Origin: an uncultured Muribaculaceae bacterium
GTDB taxonomy: Bacteria > Bacillota_I > Bacilli_A > RF39 > UBA660
NCBI GenBank assembly: GCA_964407685.1
Contig: CAYOWI010000004.1
Location: 1 to 57,561 of the forward strand
Direction: 5' to 3'
Length of the DNA: 57,561 bases
Shown: in pieces, positions 2,308-48,478 of the stretch
How the letters are laid out: each line of letters begins with the position of its first letter
Numbering within the stretch: position 1 is the first letter of the stretch
Notes under the pieces: model-generated
Seen by the model: the letters and a program-made list of their open reading frames with translations, nothing else
What the model was told of the DNA's origin: nothing
Databases searched by the model: none
Translations under genes and position numbers: made by a program

Positions 2308-3162
2308 TTGAATACAGAAAAATTAAAAACTATAACAAATTTATTTGAAAGTACAGAAATAAGAAGCGTGTGGGTTAAGGATAAAGAGGATTACTATTTT
2401 AGTGTGGTTGATGTGATAAAAGCTTTAACTGGTAGTGAAAGACCAAGAAAGTATTGGAATGATTTAAAAATAAAATTATTAGAAGAAGGAAGTCAGTTGT
2501 CCGAAAATATCGGACAACTGAAATTAAAATCATCTGATGGAAAATATTATAAGCAAGACGTGCTTGATACGGAAGGTATCTTTAGACTTATAGAGTCAGT
2601 GCCAAGTCCTAATGCAGAACCATTTAAGTTATGGTTAGCAAAGTTAGGTAGAAGAGAGATTGATAACGTTTTTGACCCATCTAAGGGAATTGATAAAATG
2701 ATTGATTATTACTTAAGAAAAGGATATGATCTTGAGTGGATAGAATCAAGAATAAGAGCTATTATTAATAGAAAAAAGCTAACTAAAGTATGGAAAGAAA
2801 ATGGTATTGAGGAAGAATATGAATATGCTATCTTAACAAATGAAATATATAAAGAATGGTCTGGCATGAAGGCTTCTGAATATAAAGAGTATAAAGGTAT
2901 TAGAAAAGAGTCTTTAAGGGATAACATGACTGATATAGAAATAGCGTTAACAGATTTAGGAGAAGCTGCCACAAGGGAATTAGCTAAAGAACATAAACCA
3001 TCAGGATTAAAAGAAAATAAGTCCATTGCAAAACTAGGTGGTCATGCGGCTCTTGTTGCAAGGGATGATATAGAAAAGAATTTAGGAAAGACGGTTATTA
3101 GTAATAAAAATAGTTTGAAGTATCAATATATTAATGAAGATGAAAAGTTAGAACATAAATGA
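2308..3162 (+). CDS. Bro-N domain / DinD-like (DNA-damage-inducible protein D-like) protein
   Basis: The N-terminal IRSVWVKDKEDYYFSVVDVIKALTGSERPRKYWNDLK pattern is typical of Bro-N/DinD proteins. TTG start lies 5 nt after AGGAGG. Confidence 0.65.
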   Translation: MNTEKLKTITNLFESTEIRSVWVKDKEDYYFSVVDVIKALTGSERPRKYWNDLKIKLLEEGSQLSENIGQLKLKSSDGKYYKQDVLDTEGIFRLIESVPSPNAEPFKLWLAKLGRREIDNVFDPSKGIDKMIDYYLRKGYDLEWIESRIRAIINRKKLTKVWKENGIEEEYEYAILTNEIYKEWSGMKASEYKEYKGIRKESLRDNMTDIEIALTDLGEAATRELAKEHKPSGLKENKSIAKLGGHAALVARDDIEKNLGKTVISNKNSLKYQYINEDEKLEHK

Positions 3163-3241
3163 TTTGAAAAACGCAACCTAAAGTTGGTAGAATATAAGTG
3201 TTAATTATAATAAGATTTAACCATGAAAGGAGGAAGGCTTA

Positions 3242-4168
3242 ATGAAATTTTGTGATAATTTAAGACGTATTAGAAAACATAAAAAAATATCTCAAGAAGA
3301 GTTAGCAGAGAAAGTAGGAGTATCAAGACAAAGTGTATCTAAATGGGAGTGCGCAGAAAGCTATCCTGAAATGGATAACATATTAAAATTATGTGATATT
3401 TTTCATTGCAAGATAAATGACTTAGTCCAAGAAGACTTAATAGATATTGATTCATTAGGCGAAGATGTAAAAATGAGTGTGGTTAAATTCAAAAAAGAAA
3501 AACAAAGAAAAATGAAAGGGTTATCCAAAGCAATATACGTTTTAGCAAGGATCGGAAAAGTTGTTTCTATTTTAGGAATAATAGCAGTCTTACTAACCAT
3601 GATTGCAACACCAGTTTTAGCAAATAACGTAAAGGTAGAAAATAATAAAATAATAATGTTTGGTGAAGAAGTTAAGTACGAAAAACAGGATGATAATATT
3701 AAAATAACATTTAAAGAAAATGAAAGCACGATAACGGATCATTCAGAAAGTTATGTGGCAAGTATGATTATTGATAAAATAGAAAATAGTAAAATGACTG
3801 TAATGATAGGATTTATAGAAACTGCTTTTGTATTCTTAGTTGTTTCACTAATATTATTTTATTTAACATTAAAACATTTAGAAAAAATGTTTATTAACAT
3901 TCATAATGGAACAACACCGTTTACCATGGAAAACGTAAATCATATCAAGAAAATGGCAACGTTTATGATATTAACAATTATTTTACCTAACATAGCAGGA
4001 GTTATTGCAGAAATGGTAATGGGTGAAGAACTTGGAATAGGTTTTGAAATGTTTGATATTATTTATATTTTATTCCTGTTTAGTATGGCTTACGTTTTTG
4101 AGTATGGATATCAATTGCAACTTGATTCTAAAGGTAGGATGTATGGAGAGGATGATGAAGAAAAGTGA
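3242..4168 (+). CDS. XRE-family HTH regulator fused to a multi-pass membrane domain (DUF2975-like)
   Basis: N-terminus LRRIRKHKKISQEELAEKVGVSRQSVSKWE is an HTH. The C-terminal half has about 4 TM helices. AAGGAGG RBS. Confidence 0.75.
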   Translation: MKFCDNLRRIRKHKKISQEELAEKVGVSRQSVSKWECAESYPEMDNILKLCDIFHCKINDLVQEDLIDIDSLGEDVKMSVVKFKKEKQRKMKGLSKAIYVLARIGKVVSILGIIAVLLTMIATPVLANNVKVENNKIIMFGEEVKYEKQDDNIKITFKENESTITDHSESYVASMIIDKIENSKMTVMIGFIETAFVFLVVSLILFYLTLKHLEKMFINIHNGTTPFTMENVNHIKKMATFMILTIILPNIAGVIAEMVMGEELGIGFEMFDIIYILFLFSMAYVFEYGYQLQLDSKGRMYGEDDEEK

Positions 4169-14464: not shown

Positions 14465-16666
14465 ATGGCAAAAAAGAAGACATCATCTTCTAGTAAGAAA
14501 AAAGGAAAAATCCCAGTTGAAATATTTGGGATTTTATATATAGTCTTAACGATTTTAGGTTTACTTAGATCTGGGTTTGTTGGACGGATGGTTAGTAACT
14601 TTGGAATCTTTTTATTTGGTGCGTATTATAATTGGGGATTGGTTTTCTTTTTAATAGTTGGAGGTTATGTATTATTATTTAGGGAAAAACCAAAGCTATT
14701 TACAAAAAAATTAATAGGATTTTATTTGTTCTCGATTGCAATCCTTTCAATGTCTCACGTTAAGTATATAATGTGTGATACTAACGTTGGTAAAGTTGTT
14801 TTTGAAGATACGATTGCTAATATAGTATCAGGTTTTAATGATGTTAATTTTATAGAGGGCGGCGGAATTTTAGGAGCTATATTTTCCTATTTATTTGTAT
14901 TAGCTTTTGACGTGCTAGGTTCTAAAATAATCTGCTTTGTTCTTATATTATTTGGTTCAATGTTAATATTTAATATCTCTTTTTCTACCGCGTTAAAAAA
15001 AATTATATTGTTTTTTACTCCGAAAAAATGGCTTAATAAAAATAAGGAAGATGAAAAAGGTATAAAAGAAATTGATGATGAAGAAAATAAAGAAGATGAA
15101 ATCATAAAGGATAAACGTGTTGTTATATCTAGTGTTAATGATTTGAATCATGTTAGTTTAGAAGAAATGGAAGAACAAGAAGAGCCTATTATTAATGGAG
15201 AGTATAAATTACCACCACTTTCATTATTAAGTGTTCCAAAAAAAGTAAACACAAAAGCTAATGAAGAAAACATATCTTCTAACATTAAATTGTTAGAACA
15301 AGTGTTAAGTGATTTTGATATATATGGAAAAGTAGTAGCAGCTCACGTAGGTCCTACTGTAACGCAGTATGAACTTGAGATTAAATCTGGTACAAAGGTA
15401 AGTAAAATACTTAGTTTAAGTAAGGAAATAGCTCTTGCTTTAGCTGCAAAAGACGTAAGGATACAAGCTCCTATTCCTGGTAAAAGTACAATTGGTATAG
15501 ATATTCCGAACAAAATAACAACCCCTGTTTCCTTAAGAGAGGTGTTGGCCGCCGTTCCAAAAGAAAAGGAAGATAGTAAGTTACTTGCGATACTTGGAAA
15601 GGACATAATGGGCAATCCCAGGTGGATGGAAGTTAATAAAACACCACACCTTCTTATTGCGGGAGCTACTGGTTCTGGTAAGTCTGTTTGTGTAAACTCA
15701 GTTATTACAAGCATTTTAATGCGCGCAAAGCCAGATGAGGTAAAGCTTGTAATGGTAGACCCTAAAAAAGTTGAACTTTCTATGTATAATGGTGTACCAC
15801 ATCTTTTGGCACCAGTTGTAAACGATCCAAAAAAAGCTTCGATTGTTTTAAAAAAGATAGTTGAGGAAATGGAACATAGGTATGATTTATTAAGTGAGAC
15901 AGGAACTAAAAATATAGAGGGTTATAATCGTAAGATGCAAAGTAAGATAGATGCGGGGGATTTATCTGCTAAAAAGTTGCCATATATTGTGGTATTAATA
16001 GATGAACTTGCAGATTTAATGTTAGTTGCGGCAAAAGAAGTAGAGGACTCAATCATGAGAATAACACAAATGGCAAGAGCGGCTGGTATCCATTTAATTG
16101 TTGCAACACAAAGACCATCAACTGATGTTATAACCGGCGTTGTAAAAGCAAATATTCCATCTAGAATTGCTTTTACGGTATCATCGTCAATTGATTCAAG
16201 AACCATCCTTGATATGACTGGAGCGGAAAAACTAATCGGTAAAGGAGATATGCTATTCTTGCCAATGGGAGAAGGTACTCCAACTAGAATACAAGGTTCT
16301 TTTGTATCAGAAGAGGAAGTTCAAAAAGTTGTTGATTATACGATAAAGCAGCAAAAGGCTAAGTATGATGAAACGTTTACTAATCTTACTTCGGCTCCAA
16401 ATGGTTCCTCATCTGCTTCTTATGATGAAAAAGACGATCAGTATGATGATCCTTTGTATAATGAAATAGTAGACTTTGTAATAAAAAGTGGTAAAACAAG
16501 TGCATCACTTTTACAAAGAAAATATAGACTTGGATATAATAGAGCTGCTAGAATGATAGATTTACTTGAAGAAAGAGGAATAGTTGGACCTCCAAATGGT
16601 TCTAAGCCAAGAGAGGTTTTAGTAAAATATGAAGATAATACAAATGAAGAAGAACAGCAAGATTAG
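14465..16666 (+). CDS. ftsK: DNA translocase FtsK/SpoIIIE
   Basis: N-terminal TM helices. Walker A LIAGATGSGKS, Walker B YIVVLIDELADL, and a C-terminal gamma (winged-helix) domain ASLLQRKYRLGYNRAARMIDLLEERGIVG. Confidence 0.9.
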   Translation: MAKKKTSSSSKKKGKIPVEIFGILYIVLTILGLLRSGFVGRMVSNFGIFLFGAYYNWGLVFFLIVGGYVLLFREKPKLFTKKLIGFYLFSIAILSMSHVKYIMCDTNVGKVVFEDTIANIVSGFNDVNFIEGGGILGAIFSYLFVLAFDVLGSKIICFVLILFGSMLIFNISFSTALKKIILFFTPKKWLNKNKEDEKGIKEIDDEENKEDEIIKDKRVVISSVNDLNHVSLEEMEEQEEPIINGEYKLPPLSLLSVPKKVNTKANEENISSNIKLLEQVLSDFDIYGKVVAAHVGPTVTQYELEIKSGTKVSKILSLSKEIALALAAKDVRIQAPIPGKSTIGIDIPNKITTPVSLREVLAAVPKEKEDSKLLAILGKDIMGNPRWMEVNKTPHLLIAGATGSGKSVCVNSVITSILMRAKPDEVKLVMVDPKKVELSMYNGVPHLLAPVVNDPKKASIVLKKIVEEMEHRYDLLSETGTKNIEGYNRKMQSKIDAGDLSAKKLPYIVVLIDELADLMLVAAKEVEDSIMRITQMARAAGIHLIVATQRPSTDVITGVVKANIPSRIAFTVSSSIDSRTILDMTGAEKLIGKGDMLFLPMGEGTPTRIQGSFVSEEEVQKVVDYTIKQQKAKYDETFTNLTSAPNGSSSASYDEKDDQYDDPLYNEIVDFVIKSGKTSASLLQRKYRLGYNRAARMIDLLEERGIVGPPNGSKPREVLVKYEDNTNEEEQQD

Positions 16667-17712
16667 CTGTTCTTTTTAAATTTATCTAAATGTTTTACTA
16701 ATGTATTACCACTTAAATCAACGTCACATTCTTCTAGTAAAGCAAGTTCTTTTTTATAATCAAAATCTAATAACAAGTGTTTTAAATTTTTTAATGCTAA
16801 TTTTGGTTCCTCTAAGTACTGATAGTAAAAATTTATTGCCATTATATAAGAGTAGTAGTAAACCGAGTCTGAAATAGTATTGTTTTTAAAATGTAATCTT
16901 ATTCTGTCAATAAAAGTTGGATTAGGATCATTAATTATTGATTTGAAAATAAAGTAATCAGATATAGTTCCTGTATTTAAAGTCATCATATAATCTTGCA
17001 TTTCTAAAAATAACTCATCGTTTATTATCTCATGATATTTTAAAATGTCTAGTGCAATATGTTCAAATAGTAAGCTTGAAATTTCACTGTATAAAAAGTT
17101 TCTTTTATTAATATCCATAATAAAATCATTGTTAAAGCAATATTCAAAATAATGCCCTAATTCATGATTTAGATTGCAAAAAGAATCTATGTTGTTTTTG
17201 CCGCTAGATAGTATGTAAGCGATATCACCATAAGGGAAAAAATGATTTCCCTTATTATATTTACACATGTGTAAATAATGATTTTTTGGATTCATCATTT
17301 TGTCTAAATCTTCTTGTTTTCCTTCTAATTTTAAGAAAAGTTCTTTAGAAAAATTTATTTTTAGATCTTCTGGTAAGTAAGTTTCGAGATTTTTTTTATT
17401 AAAATTATTAAAATCTCTATTTAAAAATTCCTCATAAGTAGTTGTAATAAAATCGTCTTGAAAAGGTGTTACATATAACTCAAATTCTTCTTTTGCATTA
17501 TTGATATTAAAACTTTTATCATAATAATTAAAATTAAATCTTGTAAAAATTAAATTTATATTACTATAATTTTTAAACATATCTTTTAGAACCATAAGCT
17601 TTGTTTCTAAAATTGTACGTTCTTTTTCTGTAATATTACTTCTTTTTAAATCTTTTAAAATAGAATTATATTCATTTATGAGTCCCTGTTTATTCCATTT
17701 ATATCTTTGCAT
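16663..17712 (-). CDS. putative HExxH zinc metallopeptidase (M3-like)
   Basis: NHELGHYFEY, plus a downstream Glu in EISSLLFEH. The stop overlaps the ftsK stop by 4 nt (convergent), with no terminator between. Confidence 0.45.
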   Translation of the reverse strand: MQRYKWNKQGLINEYNSILKDLKRSNITEKERTILETKLMVLKDMFKNYSNINLIFTRFNFNYYDKSFNINNAKEEFELYVTPFQDDFITTTYEEFLNRDFNNFNKKNLETYLPEDLKINFSKELFLKLEGKQEDLDKMMNPKNHYLHMCKYNKGNHFFPYGDIAYILSSGKNNIDSFCNLNHELGHYFEYCFNNDFIMDINKRNFLYSEISSLLFEHIALDILKYHEIINDELFLEMQDYMMTLNTGTISDYFIFKSIINDPNPTFIDRIRLHFKNNTISDSVYYYSYIMAINFYYQYLEEPKLALKNLKHLLLDFDYKKELALLEECDVDLSGNTLVKHLDKFKKNS

Positions 17713-22009: not shown

Positions 22010-23324
22010 GTTTAAGTTTTTAACTAAACATAGTTTAAAAAAGAAGATAAAAAACAAGTGGTTTTTAATCGCAAACATAATAGTTGCATTAGTTGCTATA
22101 GCGCTTGTTAACATTGATTCTATAGTAACGATGTTCGGCGGTGATTTTAATAAACCACTTAAGATAAACGTGGTAGATAATACGGGTTATTATGAAACTG
22201 TAAAAGATGGATTAAAAGGTGTTGAAAGCTATCTTGGAACTTCGAAACTTAAGATATCTAAAGTATCAGATGTAAAAAAAGCTAAGAAAAAACTATCAGG
22301 TACGGATGACATATTACTTGTTATAAATCCTGATAGCAATAATGTCTATAGAGTTGAGTTCATAACGGATGCTTACGTAGATGCCGTTAAATATCAAGCA
22401 ATTATATCCAGTTTGAATGCAACCAAGCAAAGTATTGCGCTTGATTTATCTGGTATAGATAAGGATAAATTAAATCAAATTTCATCGGCAGTTGAAATAA
22501 AAAGAAGTTTTATAAACGAAGAAAAAACCGAAGATGAGGAAAATACCAGAACGCTTTTATCAGTTGCATCACTTGTAATAGCTCTTCCTTGTTTCATGCT
22601 TATCATGTACTTAGTTCAGATGATAGGAGCTGAAATAAATGAGGAAAAATCAACGCGTGGAATGGAAATTATAATAGGAAACGTATCTCCTAAAACACAC
22701 TTCTTTTCTAAAATTTTATCTAGTAATTTATTTGTTTTAATCCAAGGCGTTTTACTTATATTATATAGTGGTATAGGGTTAATAATTAGAAAATTAACGA
22801 CTAACTCACCATCTGGTGGTATGAGTGCTATAAAAGATGTTGCAAATAAACTTGATTTATCTGGTGTGTTTGAAATGATAGAAAATAGCGGGATAATAAA
22901 TAAGCTGGGATATATAATACCGCTTATTATAATTTTATTGTTACTAAGCTTTTTAGCATATTCGCTTTTAGCAGGAGTACTAGCTTCTATGACAACCAAC
23001 ATGGAAAATTATCAGCAACTTCAAACTCCACTTATGGTAATTAGTTTGGCAGGATTTTATTTAATAATAATATCTGCTATGTTTCCGGGGGCTTTATTCG
23101 TTAAAATAGCAAGCGTTATACCACTTATGTCTATTTCACTTGCTCCGAGTCTTCTTCTTTCTGGAGAAATAGGAGTAGGTCTTATAATTGTAGCAATAGT
23201 GTTACTTATGATACTTAATTTTGTTTTAATTAAGTTTGGCCTTAAAATATACAAAGTTGGTATCTTAAATTATTCAGAAACTAACCTTTGGAAAAAAATG
23301 TTTAAAGCAATCAAAGAAAAGTGA
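21999..23324 (+). CDS. ABC-2 type transporter permease (NatB-like)
   Basis: N-terminal TM helix, a large extracytoplasmic loop, then a cluster of about 5 TM helices. Overlaps the ATPase gene. ATG follows AGGTGA. Confidence 0.7.
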   Translation: MENKFKFLTKHSLKKKIKNKWFLIANIIVALVAIALVNIDSIVTMFGGDFNKPLKINVVDNTGYYETVKDGLKGVESYLGTSKLKISKVSDVKKAKKKLSGTDDILLVINPDSNNVYRVEFITDAYVDAVKYQAIISSLNATKQSIALDLSGIDKDKLNQISSAVEIKRSFINEEKTEDEENTRTLLSVASLVIALPCFMLIMYLVQMIGAEINEEKSTRGMEIIIGNVSPKTHFFSKILSSNLFVLIQGVLLILYSGIGLIIRKLTTNSPSGGMSAIKDVANKLDLSGVFEMIENSGIINKLGYIIPLIIILLLLSFLAYSLLAGVLASMTTNMENYQQLQTPLMVISLAGFYLIIISAMFPGALFVKIASVIPLMSISLAPSLLLSGEIGVGLIIVAIVLLMILNFVLIKFGLKIYKVGILNYSETNLWKKMFKAIKEK

Positions 23325-23451
23325 TTTTTTTATCACTTTTTTTGTATTTTTCGCGTGATTTTAAAAGTTATATATAATAAGTAAAGTAGGAAGTAGTAAA
23401 AAAACTAGCTTTGTTTTCCATCCAACGTGAATAAGAAGGGTGGTGGTATTT

Positions 23452-23541
23452 ATGAGGTTTAGATTTGAAATAAAATTTAGTCCAAAATTAATTATCATTC
23501 TTGCAGCTTTAATAGTACTAGTTATTATTTTTAGTATATAA
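23452..23541 (+). CDS. 29-aa hydrophobic peptide (candidate type I toxin-like), locus A
   Basis: MRFRFEIKFSPKLIIILAALIVLVIIFSI*. Strong SD GGGTGGTGG at 23438-23446 with 5-nt spacing. Not in the ORF track because it is too short. Confidence 0.45.
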   Translation: MRFRFEIKFSPKLIIILAALIVLVIIFSI

Positions 23542-23622
23542 GAAAAACAGAGTTAGTATGTAACTAGCTCTGCTTTTCATTTTTAACCAAATTGGAAAAC
23601 AACTAGTAATGCTGCTTCCTTC
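23541..23622 (-). ncRNA. predicted ~80-nt convergent small RNA (candidate antitoxin), locus A
   Basis: Minus-strand promoter: TTGAAT (23657-23652), 17-nt spacer, extended -10 TGTATAAT (23636-23629). The transcript would run into the shared hairpin. Confidence 0.3.
23548..23580. terminator. bidirectional terminator hairpin, locus A
   Basis: CAGAGTTAG / CTAGCTCTG stem (one G-U) with a 7-nt loop. An A-run lies upstream and a T-rich run downstream. Confidence 0.55.
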
Positions 23623-23717
23623 ATTTATATTATACAATAGTAACTATGTTTATTCAATATATTATTGAAATAAAAATAAAAATGAATTACAATATTATTT
23701 AAGGGAGGTTTGCCTTT

Positions 23718-25016
23718 ATGAAAGAAATAAATATTTTACCGGCTGATACTTTTATGGTGGTAAACCGCACTATATTAAATGAATATGATAGAAAACTAAT
23801 TAGTATGCTTTATCAACCTATAATAGGCAGTATAGCAACAAGTCTTTATTATACTTTATGGGCCGATTTAGATAAAACTGAGCTTTTAAGTGGAGATTTT
23901 ACGCATCATCATTTAATGACTAGTTTAAGAGTTAAAATGGATGCTATAGTAACCGCAAGAAAAAAACTAGAGGCAATAGGGCTTTTAAAAACTTTTGTTA
24001 AAACGGGAATGTCTAACTCATATGTTTATGAGATGTTTTCACCTATATCAGCATATGAATTTTTCAATCATCCTATTTTGAACATAGTACTTTATAATAA
24101 CGTTGGTAAAAAAGAGTATGAAAATATATTAAAGTATTTTAAAGTACCTAAAATTAACTTGTCATCTTACGAGGAAATTACAAGTAGGTTTGATGAAGTA
24201 TTTGAAAGTGCGCCAGGTACCTTGTTTAATAATTTAAATGAAGATTTAAGAGTTAATAAAACTGGGCAAATTAAAATTGATAATAGTTTTGATTTCGATT
24301 TATTAATATCTTCCGTTCCAAGTGGAATAATTACAAATAAAACTTTTAGTCGTGAAGTAAAAGAATTAATTAATAACCTATCTTATGTATATAACCTTGA
24401 TGCTTTAGAGATGAAATCATCTATTTTAAACTCCATTAAAGAAAATGGACTTATAGATAAAAATTTACTTAGACGAAACGTAAGAAATTACTATAAATTT
24501 GAAAATGAAAATAAGCTTCCATCATTGATATATAAAAGTCAACCAGAGTATTTAAAAAATCCGGTAGGATCTTCTGATAAAAGGGCAAAAATGGTTTATG
24601 TATTTGAAAATACTAGTCCTTATAATTTCCTTAAGGGAGCTAATAAAGGCGTAAAACCAACAGCGAGAGATCTTGGAATATTAGAGTCTTTACTTAGTGA
24701 TTTTAAGTTAAATCCTGGAGTTGTTAATGTTTTAATAGATTATGTTCTTAAAATTAATAATAAAAAATTGACTAGAAGCTATTTGGAAACCATTGCATCA
24801 CAATGGAAAAGACTTAATGTTGAAACAGTAGAAGAAGCAATGAAAGCTGCTGAAAAAGAATATAAAAGGGAAAATAAAGGTGGTCAAAATAAACCGTTAT
24901 CTAAAGTTATAAAGGAAGAAAAGTTACCAGATTGGTTTAATCAAAACATAAAAAAAGAAAAAATAAGTGAGGAAGAAGAAAAATCCCTTAAAGATATGTT
25001 AAAGGAATTTTCATAA
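23718..25016 (+). CDS. dnaB: replication initiation / helicase-loading protein DnaB (Bacillus-type, DnaD-like domains)
   Basis: The N-terminus NILPADTFMVVNRTILNEYDRKLISMLYQPIIGSIATSLYYTLW and the C-terminal DnaD-like block LNPGVVNVLIDYVLKINNKKLTRSYLETIASQWKR are typical. dnaI lies downstream. Confidence 0.7.
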   Translation: MKEINILPADTFMVVNRTILNEYDRKLISMLYQPIIGSIATSLYYTLWADLDKTELLSGDFTHHHLMTSLRVKMDAIVTARKKLEAIGLLKTFVKTGMSNSYVYEMFSPISAYEFFNHPILNIVLYNNVGKKEYENILKYFKVPKINLSSYEEITSRFDEVFESAPGTLFNNLNEDLRVNKTGQIKIDNSFDFDLLISSVPSGIITNKTFSREVKELINNLSYVYNLDALEMKSSILNSIKENGLIDKNLLRRNVRNYYKFENENKLPSLIYKSQPEYLKNPVGSSDKRAKMVYVFENTSPYNFLKGANKGVKPTARDLGILESLLSDFKLNPGVVNVLIDYVLKINNKKLTRSYLETIASQWKRLNVETVEEAMKAAEKEYKRENKGGQNKPLSKVIKEEKLPDWFNQNIKKEKISEEEEKSLKDMLKEFS

Positions 25017-25027
25017 ATGGTGGTTAT

Positions 25028-26236
25028 ATGGGAGTGTTTAATGTTATTGATTTAAACGGCTATACTAAAATAGGTAATTTAACAACTGAAAATCATAGTA
25101 ATGTTAAGAGTACTAAATATTTTCCTATATATGAAATTAATGGCAAAAAAATGATTTATAAACCATTATCTAAAACCAAACCTTTTACAACGCCTTTTTT
25201 TAGTTATAGTGAGGTTTATTGGTCTTATATAATTAATAAGTATTTTGACTATAATGCGCCAAGATATTATTTAGCGAAAAATGGTGATGTGGAAGATAAG
25301 TATTATGATAAGGGCGTGCTTGTAGAAGATATTAATAAAGCCGGATTTAAATTAATAAACTTATATGATTATTTTATTAAATATCCAGATGAAAAGGTTA
25401 ATATAAAAGATTATATTAACTATTGTATGAAGACGTATGATTATACCAAGATTCTTAGCAGTAGTTTGGTTGCTAAAAATGAATTGATTGGTAAGGAAAT
25501 TGCGTATCAAATCTTATTATCAATTCTTAGATTGGATCAAAATTATCATTATGAAAACATAAACTTTCATGAAAATAATAGTAAGTTATTAGTGGCACAA
25601 CCAATTGATTTTGAGTTTTCTACATTTTTTCTTTATCCAGATGACATTAATAGGTATCAAAGATATAAAATTACTATATCAAGCACTTTAAAGGTTAAAT
25701 ATGGTGATGATTTTCAAATGGCTTTTCAAAAGCTCTTTATGGAAAATGATTTTGATTTAGTTGAAACTATGACTAAAAATATTTGCATAATCATTAAAAT
25801 GTATCCTGATGAGGTTAAAGAGTTTTTGAAGAAATTAGATAAATATATTGATGAATTTGACTTTAAAGTATTTGAGGATCCTGATATGTATATTGGAAAG
25901 TTAAATTCTAATTCATGGGAAATAGGACATGCTTTTTTTAAAGATAAGGATATGAATAAATATGAAGTTTTAAGACAAGAAATAAAGGAAGTAGAAATTG
26001 ATAAGAAAAAGGTGTTTGATAGGATATCAAATGATATATTAGAACATGCAAAAAAACTTAGCTTGTTATTAAAGATATATATGCAAGCAAGAAGTGTTGG
26101 AATTGAAGACTTAGAACATTTAACCATTAAAAATTTGCTAGAGGTAAATAAAATATATGGTGATTGTGATATCATTGATATAGATTTAGGAACTAATAGT
26201 ATAAAGACCATAAAAAGAAATGCTAGTAATAGGTAA
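25028..26236 (+). CDS. hypothetical 402-aa protein (weak kinase-like motifs) between dnaB and dnaI
   Basis: Intact ORF with an RBS. Motifs MIYKPLSK, LDQNYHYEN and PIDFEFS faintly recall the Lys, catalytic-loop and DFG-like elements of HipA/APH-type kinases. Confidence 0.5.
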   Translation: MGVFNVIDLNGYTKIGNLTTENHSNVKSTKYFPIYEINGKKMIYKPLSKTKPFTTPFFSYSEVYWSYIINKYFDYNAPRYYLAKNGDVEDKYYDKGVLVEDINKAGFKLINLYDYFIKYPDEKVNIKDYINYCMKTYDYTKILSSSLVAKNELIGKEIAYQILLSILRLDQNYHYENINFHENNSKLLVAQPIDFEFSTFFLYPDDINRYQRYKITISSTLKVKYGDDFQMAFQKLFMENDFDLVETMTKNICIIIKMYPDEVKEFLKKLDKYIDEFDFKVFEDPDMYIGKLNSNSWEIGHAFFKDKDMNKYEVLRQEIKEVEIDKKKVFDRISNDILEHAKKLSLLLKIYMQARSVGIEDLEHLTIKNLLEVNKIYGDCDIIDIDLGTNSIKTIKRNASNR

Positions 26237-29241: not shown

Positions 29242-31007
29242 TAAACATAAAAGAAAATGAAAAATTAAATATTTTAAATCATTCTTGTGCACACCTTTTA
29301 GCACAAGCGGTAAAGCATTTATTTCCAAATGCTAAGTTTTGGGTAGGACCAGTAATAGAAGAAGGATTCTATTATGATATAGACTTAGGAGATAAAACAT
29401 TAACAGAAGAAGATTTATTAAAAATAGAAAAAGAAATGAAAAAGTGTGCTAAGTCTGATAAGAGAATTTATAGAGAAGAACTCTCTAAGGAAGAAGCCCT
29501 TGAAAGATTTTCTGATGATCCTTATAAGATTGATTTAATTAGTAGAATGGATGAGGCTGATACTGTTATTTCTTGCTATACACAAGGAGATTTTACTGAC
29601 CTTTGTAGAGGACCTCACGTAGAGACTACTAAGATGATGAAATACTTTAAGTTAATTAAATTTTCTGGAGCATATTGGAAGGGTGATTCTAAAAACAAGA
29701 TGCTTCAAAGAATATATGGAGTATGCTTTGAAAGTGAAGAAGACTTGAATAATTATCTAGCAGAACTTGAAGACCGAAAGGCAAGAGATCATAGAAAAAT
29801 AGGTAAAGAACAAGAACTATTCATGAGCCATGAATTAGTTGGTGCTGGTATGCCTATATGGCTTCCGAATGGAGCGGTAATACGTAAACAATTAGAAAAT
29901 TACATATATGAAAAAGAAAGAAATTTAGGCTATGAACATGTTTACTCACCGTGCGTTGGAACAGTTGATTTATATAAAACCTCAGGTCACTGGGATCATT
30001 ATAAAGAAAATATGTTTCCATCAATGAAAGTTGATGATGAGGAGTTTGTTTTAAGACCTATGAATTGTCCACATCATATGTTAGTATTTAAAAACAAACT
30101 ACATTCATATAGAGATTTGCCAATTAGAATAGGCGAGTTTGCAACTGACTTTAGATATGAAGCATCAGGCGCTGTTAAAGGTTTAGAACGTGTTAGATGT
30201 ATGTGTCAAAATGATGCTCACCTTTTTGTAACTCCAGAGCAAATTGGTGATGAATTTAAAAAAGTTGTAAGCCTAATTCTTGATGTTTATAAAGATTTTG
30301 GTATTAAAGAATACAAGTTTAGATTATCACTTAGAGATCCAGAAGACAAAGAAAAATACTTTGATGATGATAAGATGTGGAATGAAGCAGAAAGTAAGTT
30401 AAGAGAGGTTTTAAATGACCTTGGTGTAGATTATTTTGAAGCTATTGGTGAAGCAGCGTTTTACGGACCTAAGTTAGACGTTGAAGTAAAACCAGCGGTT
30501 GGACCAGAAGTTACTTTATCAACTTGCCAATTAGACTTCTTACTTCCAAGACGTTTTGATTTATCATACATTGATAATAAAGGCGAAAAGAGGGTTCCAG
30601 TAGTACTTCATAGAGCAATTTTTGGAACGTTTGATAGATTTACTGCATTCTTAATAGAAGAAACTAAAGGAGCATTCCCAACTTGGCTTGCACCAGTTCA
30701 AGTAAGTGTTATACCAGTTAATAATAACTATCATTTAGAATATGCTCTTGATGTATATAACTTATTAAAGGAAAATGGTATTAGAGCTGAATTAGATGAC
30801 AGAGAAGAAAAGCTTGGATATAAGATGAGGGAGTCTGTAGTCAAGAAAATCCCTATAACTTTAGTATTAGGAGATAAAGAAAAAGATGGAAACCTAGTAA
30901 GTTATAGAAGACATGGGTCAGATAAAACTTATTCAGTAGAAAAAAATATGTTTATCGAATTATTACTTAATGAGATTAAAGATAAAAGAAGAAAAGAAAT
31001 AAATTAA
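29238..31007 (+). CDS. thrS: threonine--tRNA ligase lacking the N-terminal TGS domain
   Basis: Starts just before the editing-domain HxxxH motif ([10 protein letters not shown]). Class II motifs RPMNCPHH and [11 protein letters not shown], plus an anticodon-binding C-terminus. 589 aa. Confidence 0.9.
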
Positions 31008-31030
31008 TTTCCTTTTTGTTAATAAAAAAA

Positions 31031-31660
31031 TCACCTGTAAAGTAAGGTGATTTTTCTTCCTTTGGATTTAATAAAGCCTTCTTCTTTTAAGTATTTTAAT
31101 TCTCTTGACATAGCGGATCTATCAACTGCTAGATAATCGGCTAAGTCAGTTAAACTAAATGGCAAATAAATGTTATTCGTTCCATGCTTTTTTCTATATA
31201 TATTAAAATATTCAAGTAGTTTATCTCTTATTGTTTTTTTTGTTAATATTTCTATTCTATCATTTTTTTCATCAATTACTTTTGTTGTAATTTCTAGCAA
31301 ATTTTTTATAAATTGATTGTAATACGGAAAGTTTATATTCTCAAAAGAGATTATTGCGTCGTAATCTATTATTAGTGCCTTGGTATCCTCTTTGGCTATT
31401 ATTTGGCATTCGTCGCTTGTTAATGAAGATATTGCTGTACCGAATGCAAATCCTTCTTCCAATTCTTCTATAATAGTTCTATTTCCATTGTAATCAGTTC
31501 TTATTATTTGTGCGGTACCTTCAAGTATTATACCAATTATGCTTTCGTTTATACCAGATAACATAACCGTGTTTTTTTTGTAGTTTAAGATGCTAGCTTC
31601 CAATAATTTTAATAATTTATTTTGCTGGTTTACACTAATATTATTAAATAATTTGTACAT
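31031..31660 (-). CDS. Crp/Fnr-family transcriptional regulator
   Basis: N-terminal cNMP-binding-like beta-roll. C-terminal HTH LTDLADYLAVDRSAMSRELKYLKEEGFI. Divergent from the nrdD cluster. Confidence 0.8.
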   Translation of the reverse strand: MYKLFNNISVNQQNKLLKLLEASILNYKKNTVMLSGINESIIGIILEGTAQIIRTDYNGNRTIIEELEEGFAFGTAISSLTSDECQIIAKEDTKALIIDYDAIISFENINFPYYNQFIKNLLEITTKVIDEKNDRIEILTKKTIRDKLLEYFNIYRKKHGTNNIYLPFSLTDLADYLAVDRSAMSRELKYLKEEGFIKSKGRKITLLYR

Positions 31661-42128: not shown

Positions 42129-42704
42129 ATGAAATTAACGAGTAAAAAAGCACTGGAAATGTTAGAATCATCTAGAGGAAAAACTCCTCATGATGGTTGG
42201 ATTGATCATTCTATATGTGTTGGATATGCAGCAGGAGTAATTGCGAATGCTTTAAACTTAGATGAAGAAAAAGCCAAAACTTTAGGATATATACATGATA
42301 TTGGAAAATTAATAAAGTTTGAAGGACACGTTATGGAAGGTTATAATTATTTAAAAGAATTAGGTTATGATGATTGTTATTGCAACGTATGTTTAACTCA
42401 TTCATACTTAAATAACGACGTTAATTGTACGCAAGGTGAGCCAAGCAACATTCCTTTTAGAACAGAGTTTATTAAAAATCATGAGTATACTATTTATGAA
42501 AAAGTAATTAATTTATGTGATTTAATGTGTATGAAAAATGTAGTTACCATGGAAAAGAGATTAATAGATGTTATTTCTAGAAGACTACAACATAAAAACA
42601 TTGTTTATCATGTTAAAGAATCTTTAAAATTAAAGAAATATTTTGATGATTTATTAGGTTATAATTTATATGATTTGTTTCCGGAAATAAAGGAAAATTT
42701 ATAA
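42129..42704 (+). CDS. HD-domain phosphohydrolase
   Basis: HSICVGYAAGVIA...YIHDIGK carries the H...HD signature. Overlaps the dnaE stop. Confidence 0.65.
   Translation: MKLTSKKALEMLESSRGKTPHDGWIDHSICVGYAAGVIANALNLDEEKAKTLGYIHDIGKLIKFEGHVMEGYNYLKELGYDDCYCNVCLTHSYLNNDVNCTQGEPSNIPFRTEFIKNHEYTIYEKVINLCDLMCMKNVVTMEKRLIDVISRRLQHKNIVYHVKESLKLKKYFDDLLGYNLYDLFPEIKENL
42592..42703 (+). repeat. direct repeat copy 1 (3' end of the HD-domain gene)
   Basis: 112 nt match 47938-48049 at a constant offset of 5346. The last 100 nt are identical. The 3 mismatches all lie in the first 12 nt. Confidence 0.9.
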
Positions 42705-42706
42705 TT

Positions 42707-42741
42707 AAAAAACACGAAATATAAAAAGACGTGTTTTTTTT
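42707..42741 (+). terminator. rho-independent terminator after the HD-domain gene
   Basis: AACACG / CGTGTT stem followed by TTTTTTTT. Confidence 0.55.
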
Positions 42742-42824
42742 AGTTGACGGCACTGAAAAAACTTAGCTTTTTGCATTTATAAAATATTTAGTTGAAAAAC
42801 TTTTTGTAAAAAATACCAAAAGTA

Positions 42825-48049: not shown

Positions 48050-48199
48050 GTATTATATAAATGCTAGAAAAAGAATTCATTATTTCAAGTGTTTTGCAAA
48101 AATATGTATAATAATTAAAATGAAAGCAACTAATATTTTTGTTCTTGGGTTAGAATATGTTTTCCATTTTTTATAGGAATAAGAAATGGGGTGATGTCT

Positions 48200-48280
48200 A
48201 TGAGAAAAGAAAATAAATTTCTTAAAGTCATAGTTATCCTTTTAATTTTATTAATAGGCTTCCTAATATATAAAATATAA
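48200..48280 (+). CDS. 26-aa hydrophobic peptide (candidate type I toxin-like), locus B
   Basis: MRKENKFLKVIVILLILLIGFLIYKI*. SD GGGGTGA (48188-48194) with 5-nt spacing. Promoter TTCAAG-17 nt-TATAAT, with TG (48084-48112). Confidence 0.45.
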   Translation: MRKENKFLKVIVILLILLIGFLIYKI

Positions 48281-48377
48281 AAGAAAAGCATGCTATCCCA
48301 GGGGGGTGTAGCATGCTTTTCCAATACCAAAATATTGGAAAACTTCTAATCCTTTGAAGGTATTAGTCGCTTTCACT
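48281..48377 (-). ncRNA. predicted ~95-nt convergent small RNA (candidate antitoxin), locus B
   Basis: Minus-strand promoter: TTGAAT (48413-48408), 18-nt spacer, TATAAT (48389-48384). The transcript would end at the shared hairpin. Confidence 0.3.
48284..48320. terminator. bidirectional terminator hairpin, locus B
   Basis: AAAAGCATGCTA / TAGCATGCTTTT, a 12-bp stem flanked by A and T runs. Confidence 0.6.
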
Positions 48378-48478
48378 ATTTATATTATATAATAACAATA
48401 ACTAATTATTCAATAGAAAATGAGCTTAATATAGATTAAATCTAGTTTTTTTGTTATAATCTTTATTAGGTGATAGAT

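Follow-up and report, generated by a model that had tools for sequence, protein, structure and literature searches.

Toxin-antitoxin (TA) systems of type I differ in how their toxin mRNAs are folded and where their antisense RNAs bind. The aapA mRNAs carry an upstream anti-Shine-Dalgarno (anti-SD) sequence, a second anti-SD embedded in the open reading frame (ORF) (aSD1 and aSD2 in aapA3) and a long-distance interaction; in aapA3 of Helicobacter pylori, two transient hairpins mask the SD during transcription, the long-distance interaction then forms, and 3' trimming removes the latter and activates the mRNA (PMC6733600). The par system has convergent promoters, a shared terminator, direct repeats, an SD-masking stem and a helix in which the extreme 5' end of the toxin mRNA is buried, and toxins of the Fst/Ldr motif consist of an N-terminal hydrophobic domain with PXXXG(C) and a charged C-terminal tail (PMC7472228). 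Binding of SR4 to bsrG mRNA takes place in its 3' part, favours decay and extends the helix that masks the SD from 4 to 8 bp (PMC3834814). In the bsrG/SR4 and txpA/RatA families the antisense RNA overlaps the ORF, and the 24 families of T1TAdb are limited to genomes already reported in the literature (PMC8594479). Compact TA-like cassettes have also been reused as portable RNA regulators (PMC12721322). Here we analysed an intergenic element, locus A, in the first 57,561 nt of contig CAYOWI010000004.1 of an uncultured gut bacterium (hereafter the window), where a 393-nt gap separates an ABC-2 permease gene (ending at 23324) from a DnaB-type replication initiation gene (starting at 23718).

Sequence comparisons make it likely that locus A is a toxin/antisense cassette of the type I kind. 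On balance, we also favour the view that it is one copy of a previously undescribed type I TA-like cassette family, with units of ~300 nt each, which would work by the mechanism set out below. The original prediction, made from the letters of the window, had already read the gap as a type I TA-like module outside the par/Fst family, with a 29-codon ORF behind a strong SD, a hairpin flanked by an A-run and a T-run and able to terminate in both directions, a near-consensus minus-strand promoter, a small RNA without a credible ORF, a pair of inverted arms and a paralogue at 48.08-48.42 kb. All of these features were recovered here, and the type I-like reading is now backed by coding constraint, conserved promoters, covarying helices, a multi-copy cassette and an insertion site that is filled in some relatives and empty in others. 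Conservation of the ORF and of the arm pairing in related genomes had been proposed as a test of that reading, and both were found to be conserved.

Coding constraint and RNA structure across the cassette family

A pattern derived from two conserved blocks was scanned over a species-representative genome collection and gave 43 matches in 38 loci, all in Aphodocola-like metagenome-assembled genomes with various labels. Altogether, at least 52 sequenced A-type copies of the ~300-nt cassette were collected from ~14 such genomes, plus 2 B-type copies. The A-type total of 52, of which 50 belong to the main analysed set, includes one copy recovered with a relaxed pattern (L054) and one divergent copy recovered with a covariance model (L043, 6130-6480). 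Unless stated otherwise, the comparisons below refer to alignment A2, which holds 42 distinct copies from the predicted mRNA start to the end of the right arm.

The toxin-candidate ORF of locus A (23452-23541, plus strand) encodes a 29-aa peptide, MRFRFEIKFSPKLIIILAALIVLVIIFSI, and is preceded by the SD GGGUGGUGG (also given as GGGTGGTGG; 23438-23446, plus strand), for which the family consensus is GGTGAT. The frame set by the aligned start is open for at least 25 codons in 42/42 copies, whereas neither of the other two frames is open in any (0/42). Column entropy is lowest at the second codon position (0.36, versus 0.84 at the first and 0.77 at the third), and insertions and deletions within the ORF are multiples of three. 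Judged by this conservation, the ORF is a genuine coding sequence. The peptide has a charged, amphipathic N-terminus followed by a hydrophobic helix of ~17 residues, and the family consensus reads M(R/K)F(R/K)FEIKF..K followed by ~17 aliphatic residues. An ORF of fewer than 60 aa, encoding a small hydrophobic peptide with a predicted transmembrane segment, is what the type I class calls for. Scans of the peptide against Pfam, NCBIfam and PADLOC returned no family match, with weak transmembrane-segment noise only. Degenerate copies also occur: the aligned start has changed from ATG to ATT in three copies of an assembly with 11 loci (L018 5923-6167, L027 1215-1458 and L031 2517-2766, all in CAMMVQ01), one copy lacks the SD through a deletion (L042) and one is frameshifted (L028). 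By sequence, these look like decaying members of a multi-copy family.

The strongest structural signal comes from the two inverted arms. The 5' arm (AGGAAGUAGU...ACUAG..UUGUUUUCCA; 23389-23420, plus strand) was delimited by RNAalifold and by pair counts over the 42 copies (columns 6-14 and 24-39), and the 3' arm (23593-23619, plus strand), delimited by alignment and folds, would lie on a read-through part of the mRNA. Loci A and B, the latter being the B-type copy, are the only places in the window with the joint motif TGCTTTTC-N13-TTGGAAAAC, for which 0 occurrences are expected by chance. RNAalifold returned four helices for the alignment, namely the outer arms (9 pairs), the arm core (14 pairs), a helix joining the SD-AUG region to codons 13-15, and the hairpin. 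Pairing is kept in 98% of the cells of these four helices, and a shift of the partner strand by 1-3 columns lowers it to 33-55%. Changes on both sides of a pair were counted in 104 cells, compared with 41±6 in column shuffles, and none of 500 shuffles reached 104. GC<->AU switches were found at 5 of the 9 outer-helix pairs. Within the arm core, the seven copies at DnaB-synteny sites and L054 are unchanged, and the divergent L043 copy retains UUGUUUUCC/GGAAAACAA.

The outer helix further shows on which strand selection would have acted. As plus-strand RNA, 96.3% of its cells are paired, versus 78.5% on the minus strand, and this asymmetry reflects 72 plus-strand G·U cells against 5 A·C cells. 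Moreover, the fold of the complete module is more stable than that of its reverse complement in 52/52 copies, by a mean of 17.4 kcal/mol, and the 5'-3' closing helix is present in the minimum free energy (MFE) fold of 52/52 copies. The long plus-strand RNA is predicted to be strongly structured at locus A (z = -5.6) and in both B-type copies (z = -9.4 in the window and -6.6 in L013), and the two B-type copies have differing arm sequences and the same closing helix. Covariation together with the G·U strand asymmetry is most simply explained by pairing of the two arms within a single plus-strand RNA. The arms therefore probably form a 5'-3' long-distance helix on this RNA, in which case the toxin mRNA would extend past the hairpin to ~23620. 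This changes the meaning of one earlier observation. The original prediction had noted that both convergent RNAs start with a same-sense module; the likeness is real, and it would follow from the small RNA being antisense to the 3' arm of the mRNA, so that the idea of a deliberate shared 5' module gives way to arm-arm pairing on the plus strand.

Two further helices are predicted to mask the initiation region. The upstream anti-SD aSD1 (UCCAUCC; 23417-23423, plus strand) is placed by the MFE fold and by covariation: CCAUCC (23418-23423) pairs with GGGUGG (23438-23443), as originally proposed, and in homologues the partners change together (CCAACC/GGUUGG, CCAUUUC/GGGAUGG, CCGUUUUUUA/UAGAAAGCGG and CCUC/GAGG). 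Cognate aSD1:SD duplexes have a mean of -8.3 kcal/mol, compared with -5.9 for non-cognate combinations. As aSD1 and the end of the long-distance helix have 3-4 nt in common and both make use of UCCA, the two pairings are partly mutually exclusive. The second helix (23445-23496; columns 77-84 with 121-128) joins the stretch from the 3' part of the SD to the A of AUG (23445-23452) with codons 13-15, UAAUUAUC (23489-23496), which would act as an anti-SD inside the ORF (aSD2). Its cells are paired in 97% of cases, and an AU<->GC exchange is present in 16 sequences. Sequestration of SD and AUG by two covarying helices, as predicted here, is a structural trait of the type I class.

Promoters, shared hairpin and antisense RNA

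The minus-strand promoter of the small RNA (sRNA) reads TTGAAT-17-TATAAT (23629-23657) and agrees with the consensus at 10/12 positions. Such a match alone is not above chance in this AT-rich stretch (28% GC), where 4 promoter-like sites were found and 3.7 were expected. The -10 and -35 boxes and the 17-nt spacing are kept across 43 independent copies, however, and the promoter draws its significance from this conservation in the family and not from the consensus match alone. The toxin promoter region (23350-23384, plus strand) was recognised as a conserved block with a -10 box, TATAAT, at 23373-23378 and no -35 box of the sigma-70 type, giving a predicted start at ~23385. The block, aGgGg.aTTTtAAAAgttaTg.cTAAt, is conserved in 45 copies with a -10-like element of the form (T/G/A)(A/C)TAAT, and a conserved G-rich/T-rich block lies upstream of the -10. 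In the window (23350-23372) and in other copies a G-run block, (T)AGGGGGATTTTAAAA, occupies the place expected for a -35 box, and a TG abuts the -10; this block may be used by an alternative sigma factor or be bound by a protein. A sigma-H-type motif (AGGGGGATTT...) was considered and dropped, the likeness being too loose and weak. Type I TA loci usually have a weak toxin promoter opposite a strong antitoxin promoter, and the two promoters predicted here fit this pattern.

Between the two promoters lies a shared hairpin (23540-23584, with the stem at 23548-23572), identified by terminator scan and folds and flanked by the A-run and the T-run. The stem has 10 pairs and gave a terminator call on the plus strand, with 0.1 such sites expected in shuffles; on the minus strand the fold contains a 1x1 internal loop followed by UUUUUCUU. 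GC<->AU exchanges were observed at 2 of its pairs. In terms of pairing the plus strand does better, with 98.4% of cells paired versus 86.9% on the minus strand, and a plus-strand U·G, equivalent to a C·A mismatch in the sRNA, is present in 31/42 copies. The mean number of T in the 9 nt after the stem is 5.2 for the plus strand and 7.05 for the minus strand, the plus-strand tract is weaker in 39/42 copies, and at locus B it is only UUUUCC. The shared hairpin is predicted to terminate the minus-strand sRNA well and the plus-strand mRNA less well.

The antisense RNA, our antitoxin candidate, would be ~85 nt long (predicted ends 23538 and 23622, minus strand). Its promoter and terminator are conserved, and it is predicted to fold (z = -4.2) into a 5' hairpin, which is the complement of the mRNA 3' arm, a U-rich single-stranded spacer and the terminator hairpin. 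No conserved ORF was found in it among the family copies. A covariance model of the sRNA matched all cassette copies and detected no third cassette in the window beyond loci A and B. Weak matches to this model (17-24 bits, on both strands) at 16624-16716, 30987-31059 and 42672-42775 are probably ordinary bidirectional intergenic terminators.

The sRNA also has a second region of complementarity to the mRNA. A direct repeat with 84% identity, overlooked in the original prediction, connects 23403-23421 (DR1), within the 5' arm, with 23562-23580 (DR2), which consists of the 3' arm of the shared hairpin and its T-run. The repeat gives the 5' arm of the sRNA terminator ~15 bp of complementarity to the 5' untranslated region (5'UTR), and by inspection the B-type copies also carry a direct repeat, of different sequence. 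The predicted sRNA:5'UTR duplex has a mean of -32.7 kcal/mol (z = -3.7), and the paired 5'UTR stretch spans the repeat in 18/18 sampled copies. Complementarity of a predicted antisense RNA to the 3' region of the toxin mRNA, together with ~15 bp of its 5'UTR, agrees at the sequence level with the type I class. The suggestion that the UUUUCCA copy in the sRNA might act as an anti-SD in trans did not hold up, as inspection found at most 3-5 bp of pairing between UUUUCC and the SD.

Genomic distribution and flanking genes

The cassette is so far confined to uncultured gut Bacilli related to Candidatus Aphodocola. One assembly contains 11 loci and another 7, and L016 carries a tandem triple array with a 318-nt period. 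The orthologous ABC-2/dnaB region was compared in relatives at 81-95% identity. A cassette is present at this site in L001-L004, L012 and L013 and is tandemly duplicated in L011, and in L005-L008 the site is empty, with a 98-nt gap that lacks the cassette and retains the dnaB promoter. The site of L013 holds an inserted gene (2694-3593; 299 aa, without a Pfam match) with a B-type cassette on one side and an A-type cassette on the other. Nearly all copies directly follow the terminator hairpin of a co-oriented upstream gene, and these hairpins are unrelated in sequence. The toxin has the orientation of the upstream gene in 42/43 cases and that of the downstream gene in 37/41. At locus A, the intrinsic terminator hairpin and T-run of the ABC-2 permease gene (inverted repeat I3; 23309-23348, plus strand) lie just beyond the left edge of the cassette.

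Locus B (48075-48425, plus strand) shares 75% column identity and the same architecture with locus A. It comprises an ORF, MRKENKFLKVIVILLILLIGFLIYKI (48200-48280, plus strand), a hairpin (48283-48321), long-distance arms (48107-48172 and 48330-48389) and a minus-strand promoter (48413-48384). Its long plus-strand RNA, with a 5'-3' closing helix, is the most strongly structured of all. A 10-bp hairpin, TTTTCCAATA/TATTGGAAAA (48317-48342), directly follows the main hairpin. The sole further B-type copy (L013 2265-2693) was found by tblastn of the B-type peptides against all fetched loci, and the B-type pattern had no match in metagenome contigs (JGI). In metagenome contigs, the relaxed A-type pattern gave 7 loci, of which only L054 is a true copy; the others were rejected as chance matches or unrelated palindromes. 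Among these, contigs of 37-38% GC contributed long, nearly perfect palindromes at L053 1027-1216, L056 2087-2263 and L057 8750-8926, with one element common to L056 and L057. The A-type pattern had no match in viral contigs, and blastn of the module DNA against plasmid and phage collections had none either. In Rfam, searched with the window and with both loci at gathering as well as E-value cut-offs, only noise came up; the best scores were 22-26 bits, and the thresholds lie at 60-80.

Hundreds of relatives of the DnaB-type protein occur in gut metagenomes at 80-95% identity, and one of them carries the NCBI name Candidatus Aphodocola sp., an unplaced genus of Bacilli. Exact-protein look-up returned no record for a 33-aa ORF variant or for the DnaB of the window. 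Since their ORFs have fewer than 30 codons, the cassettes have gone unannotated, and they explain several "empty" intergenic gaps in Aphodocola-like genomes. Downstream, a 402-aa ORF without a Pfam match lies between the dnaB-type and dnaI-type genes (25028-26236). It is found in L001 and absent from L002-L008, where dnaI directly follows dnaB, and in L009 a 261-aa TPR-like gene occupies its place; the 402-aa ORF looks like a variable insertion in the replication-initiation operon.

Proposed mechanism, alternatives and relation to known systems

The design of locus A is best read as aapA/hok-like mRNA folding combined with a Gram-positive-style, 3'-convergent antisense RNA. We infer the transcript ends, the hairpin read-through, the toxicity of the peptide, the antitoxin action, the involvement of RNase and the direction of regulation from the sequence. 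In the proposed mechanism, a weak plus-strand promoter would produce a highly structured mRNA for a membrane peptide of 27-29 aa. A fraction of the transcripts, possibly most, would read through the weak plus-strand hairpin and gain the 3' arm, which would pair with the extreme 5' end in a helix of ~23 bp, closing the molecule and burying its 5' end. This closed mRNA would probably be stable but inert. The strong convergent promoter would yield the ~85-nt antisense RNA, which would stop at the same hairpin and match the mRNA with full complementarity over 3' arm, spacer and hairpin; the two spacers, single-stranded in both predicted folds, would nucleate the pairing. The resulting duplex of ~80 bp would displace the 5' end of the mRNA, open the closing helix and expose the mRNA to a double-strand-specific RNase and decay. 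Opening of the helix would also free UUUUCCA, with which the upstream anti-SD helix could be completed. The ~15-bp complementarity to the 5'UTR could in turn act on terminated or 3'-trimmed mRNA, as the par repeats do. That the long-distance form exists as described here is an assumption we think somewhat better founded than its negation. Tentatively, and with a good measure of doubt, we propose that this is the first type I TA family of Bacillota with a 5'-3' long-distance helix whose 3' arm lies past a shared terminator, and in which the antitoxin RNA, a near copy of the mRNA 5' end, competes for the 3' arm and thereby turns a closed, stable mRNA into an open one that is degraded or more strongly masked.

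Several observations weigh against this mechanism. The core of the outer helix was fixed by the search pattern, which leaves the nine outer pairs as the only evidence for that helix. Together with CUUUUCAUUUUU, the hairpin could plausibly terminate plus-strand transcription by itself, and efficient termination there would leave few transcripts with the 3' arm; downstream of this arm, no clear terminator was found. The toxin promoter is not recognisable as sigma-70-type, and the consensus scan made no call there. The SD is masked in the predicted folds of both the 200-nt and the 242-nt mRNA, and because it is masked in the short as well as the long form, the folds alone do not tell which form is translated or what effect the sRNA has on translation. 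If the sRNA paired with the 5'UTR repeat, it would do so in competition with aSD1, which would fit poorly with an antitoxin role. The peptide has no homology to any proven toxin in the Pfam, NCBIfam and PADLOC scans. Finally, concerted change of the arms could be partly explained by quasi-palindrome correction at the DNA level or by gene conversion, although neither would yield the G·U strand asymmetry.

The mRNA may instead be short (~195 nt), ending at the shared terminator and controlled in the par/Fst style by loop kissing and by pairing of the sRNA terminator arm with the 5'UTR repeat; the sRNA would then overlap the mRNA only across the hairpin, and the arms would be alike because the same protective 5' hairpin is needed on both RNAs. 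The terminator-like call for the plus-strand hairpin agrees with this, as do the 84%-identical direct repeat, which recurs in the B-type copies by inspection, the predicted sRNA:5'UTR duplex spanning the repeat in every sampled copy, the local 5' hairpins that the consensus folds predict for short mRNA and sRNA alike, and the precedent of par itself (PMC7472228). The pattern of substitutions is harder to accommodate. Independent 5' hairpins need no joint change of the arms, since a purine-rich 5' end pairs with the U-rich UUUUCC equally well through A or G, so that joint change at five positions would be left unexplained, as would the tolerance of mismatches as plus-strand G·U (72 versus 5 cells). 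In addition, the plus-strand U-tract is the weaker one, reduced to UUUUCC in the B-type copy of the window, and the repeat lies ~17 nt upstream of the SD and not over the initiation site as in par. A short mRNA of this kind is in our view rather unlikely.

The remaining explanations set aside the toxin or the RNA altogether. If the ORF encoded a non-toxic small membrane protein with a physiological role, such as modulating a membrane complex, under a cis-antisense regulator, the absence of homology to known toxins and the conservation of M(R/K)F(R/K)FEIKF beyond the apparent need of a generic membrane-inserting toxin would be accounted for. We hold this to be improbable, given that up to 11 loci per genome, tandem arrays, filled and empty sites, varied contexts and inactivated copies typify selfish TA cassettes, and that masking of the ribosome-binding site in three layers is acknowledged as characteristic of type I toxin mRNAs (PMC6733600). 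The cassette could also be a non-coding intergenic repeat or an element like a miniature inverted-repeat transposable element, with the arms as terminal repeats and the ORF and promoters as incidental features; a multi-copy ~300-nt unit with inverted repeats, inserted after terminators at sites that are filled or empty, has this appearance. Yet coding constraint is found in a single ORF frame, both promoters are conserved, the arms lie inside the unit and not at its ends with no target-site duplication apparent by inspection, no copy was found in the viral contigs, plasmids or phages searched, and the G·U strand asymmetry points to selection on RNA and not on DNA, which together make a purely non-coding element very improbable. 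We retain a type I TA-like cassette with a closed mRNA as the preferred reading. The type I TA catalogue would gain from it a new, well-defined family of an uncultured gut lineage that T1TAdb does not contain, and the 52 natural variants provide a ready set of compensatory mutations for studies of toxin mRNA folding.

Among described systems, par (Fst/RNA I-RNA II of Enterococcus faecalis pAD1) agrees with locus A in its convergent promoters and bidirectional hairpin, at the level of sequence and fold, and in having a direct repeat as a second region of complementarity, an SD-masking stem and a buried mRNA 5' end, the last two as predicted for locus A. Unlike par, locus A does not have a DRa/DRb pair at both 5' ends; its 5' ends are same-sense, and its single repeat makes use of the terminator arm and lies upstream of the SD, off the initiation site. 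The polarity of the peptide is opposite to that of Fst, with a charged N-terminus and a hydrophobic C-terminus, no PXXXG and no charged tail. The Fst family models of Pfam and NCBIfam and the RNA II model of Rfam gave no match. The original placement outside par/Fst is upheld by all three lines, since the Fst-type peptide, the DRa/DRb layout and the RNA II model each fail.

The predicted mRNA itself resembles those of aapA/IsoA (H. pylori) and hok/Sok (enterobacterial plasmids), in which the 5' and 3' ends pair as they are predicted to do at locus A. In aapA, as predicted here, the SD is masked in turn by an upstream and an ORF-internal anti-SD. Both aapA and hok occur in multiple copies on the chromosome, like the cassette family, and both have a stable hairpin just upstream of the 3' arm; the corresponding hairpin of locus A could stop 3' trimming and yield a shorter form. 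A long-distance helix like the one that closes the full-length mRNA of aapA and hok has strong support at locus A from the covariation and strand asymmetry of the arms, and it would form only on an mRNA that reads through the hairpin. In contrast to these systems, whose antisense RNA overlaps the 5'UTR or the start of the ORF, the predicted sRNA of locus A is convergent and covers the 3' arm, and the sole conserved antisense promoter is on the 3' side. The long-distance helix predicted for locus A would bury the 5' end and the flank of aSD1 and not the SD, and its 3' arm comes after the terminator-like hairpin that mRNA and sRNA share, both unlike aapA and hok. Neither the peptide nor the RNA of locus A has AapA or Hok homology in Pfam, NCBIfam and Rfam, and its host belongs to a low-GC lineage of Bacillota, whereas that of aapA/hok is a Proteobacterium.

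With respect to the antisense RNA, locus A resembles bsrG/SR4 and txpA/RatA of Bacillus subtilis, where a convergent antisense RNA pairs with the 3' part of the mRNA, and the dual effect of SR4 on decay and on the SD-masking helix is of the kind predicted for the locus A sRNA. The peptide is unrelated in sequence to the bsrG and txpA toxins (Pfam, NCBIfam). With a predicted end at ~23538-23540, the sRNA of locus A would overlap at most the last 2-4 nt of the ORF, including the stop codon (23539-23541), unlike the antisense RNAs of bsrG and txpA. To our knowledge, no 5'-3' closing helix is known for bsrG/SR4 or txpA/RatA. By sequence, locus A is outside the par/Fst, aapA/IsoA, hok/Sok, bsrG/SR4 and txpA/RatA families, and its architecture suggests that the closed-mRNA 5'-3' design, best known from hok and aapA, has also evolved together with a 3'-convergent antisense RNA.

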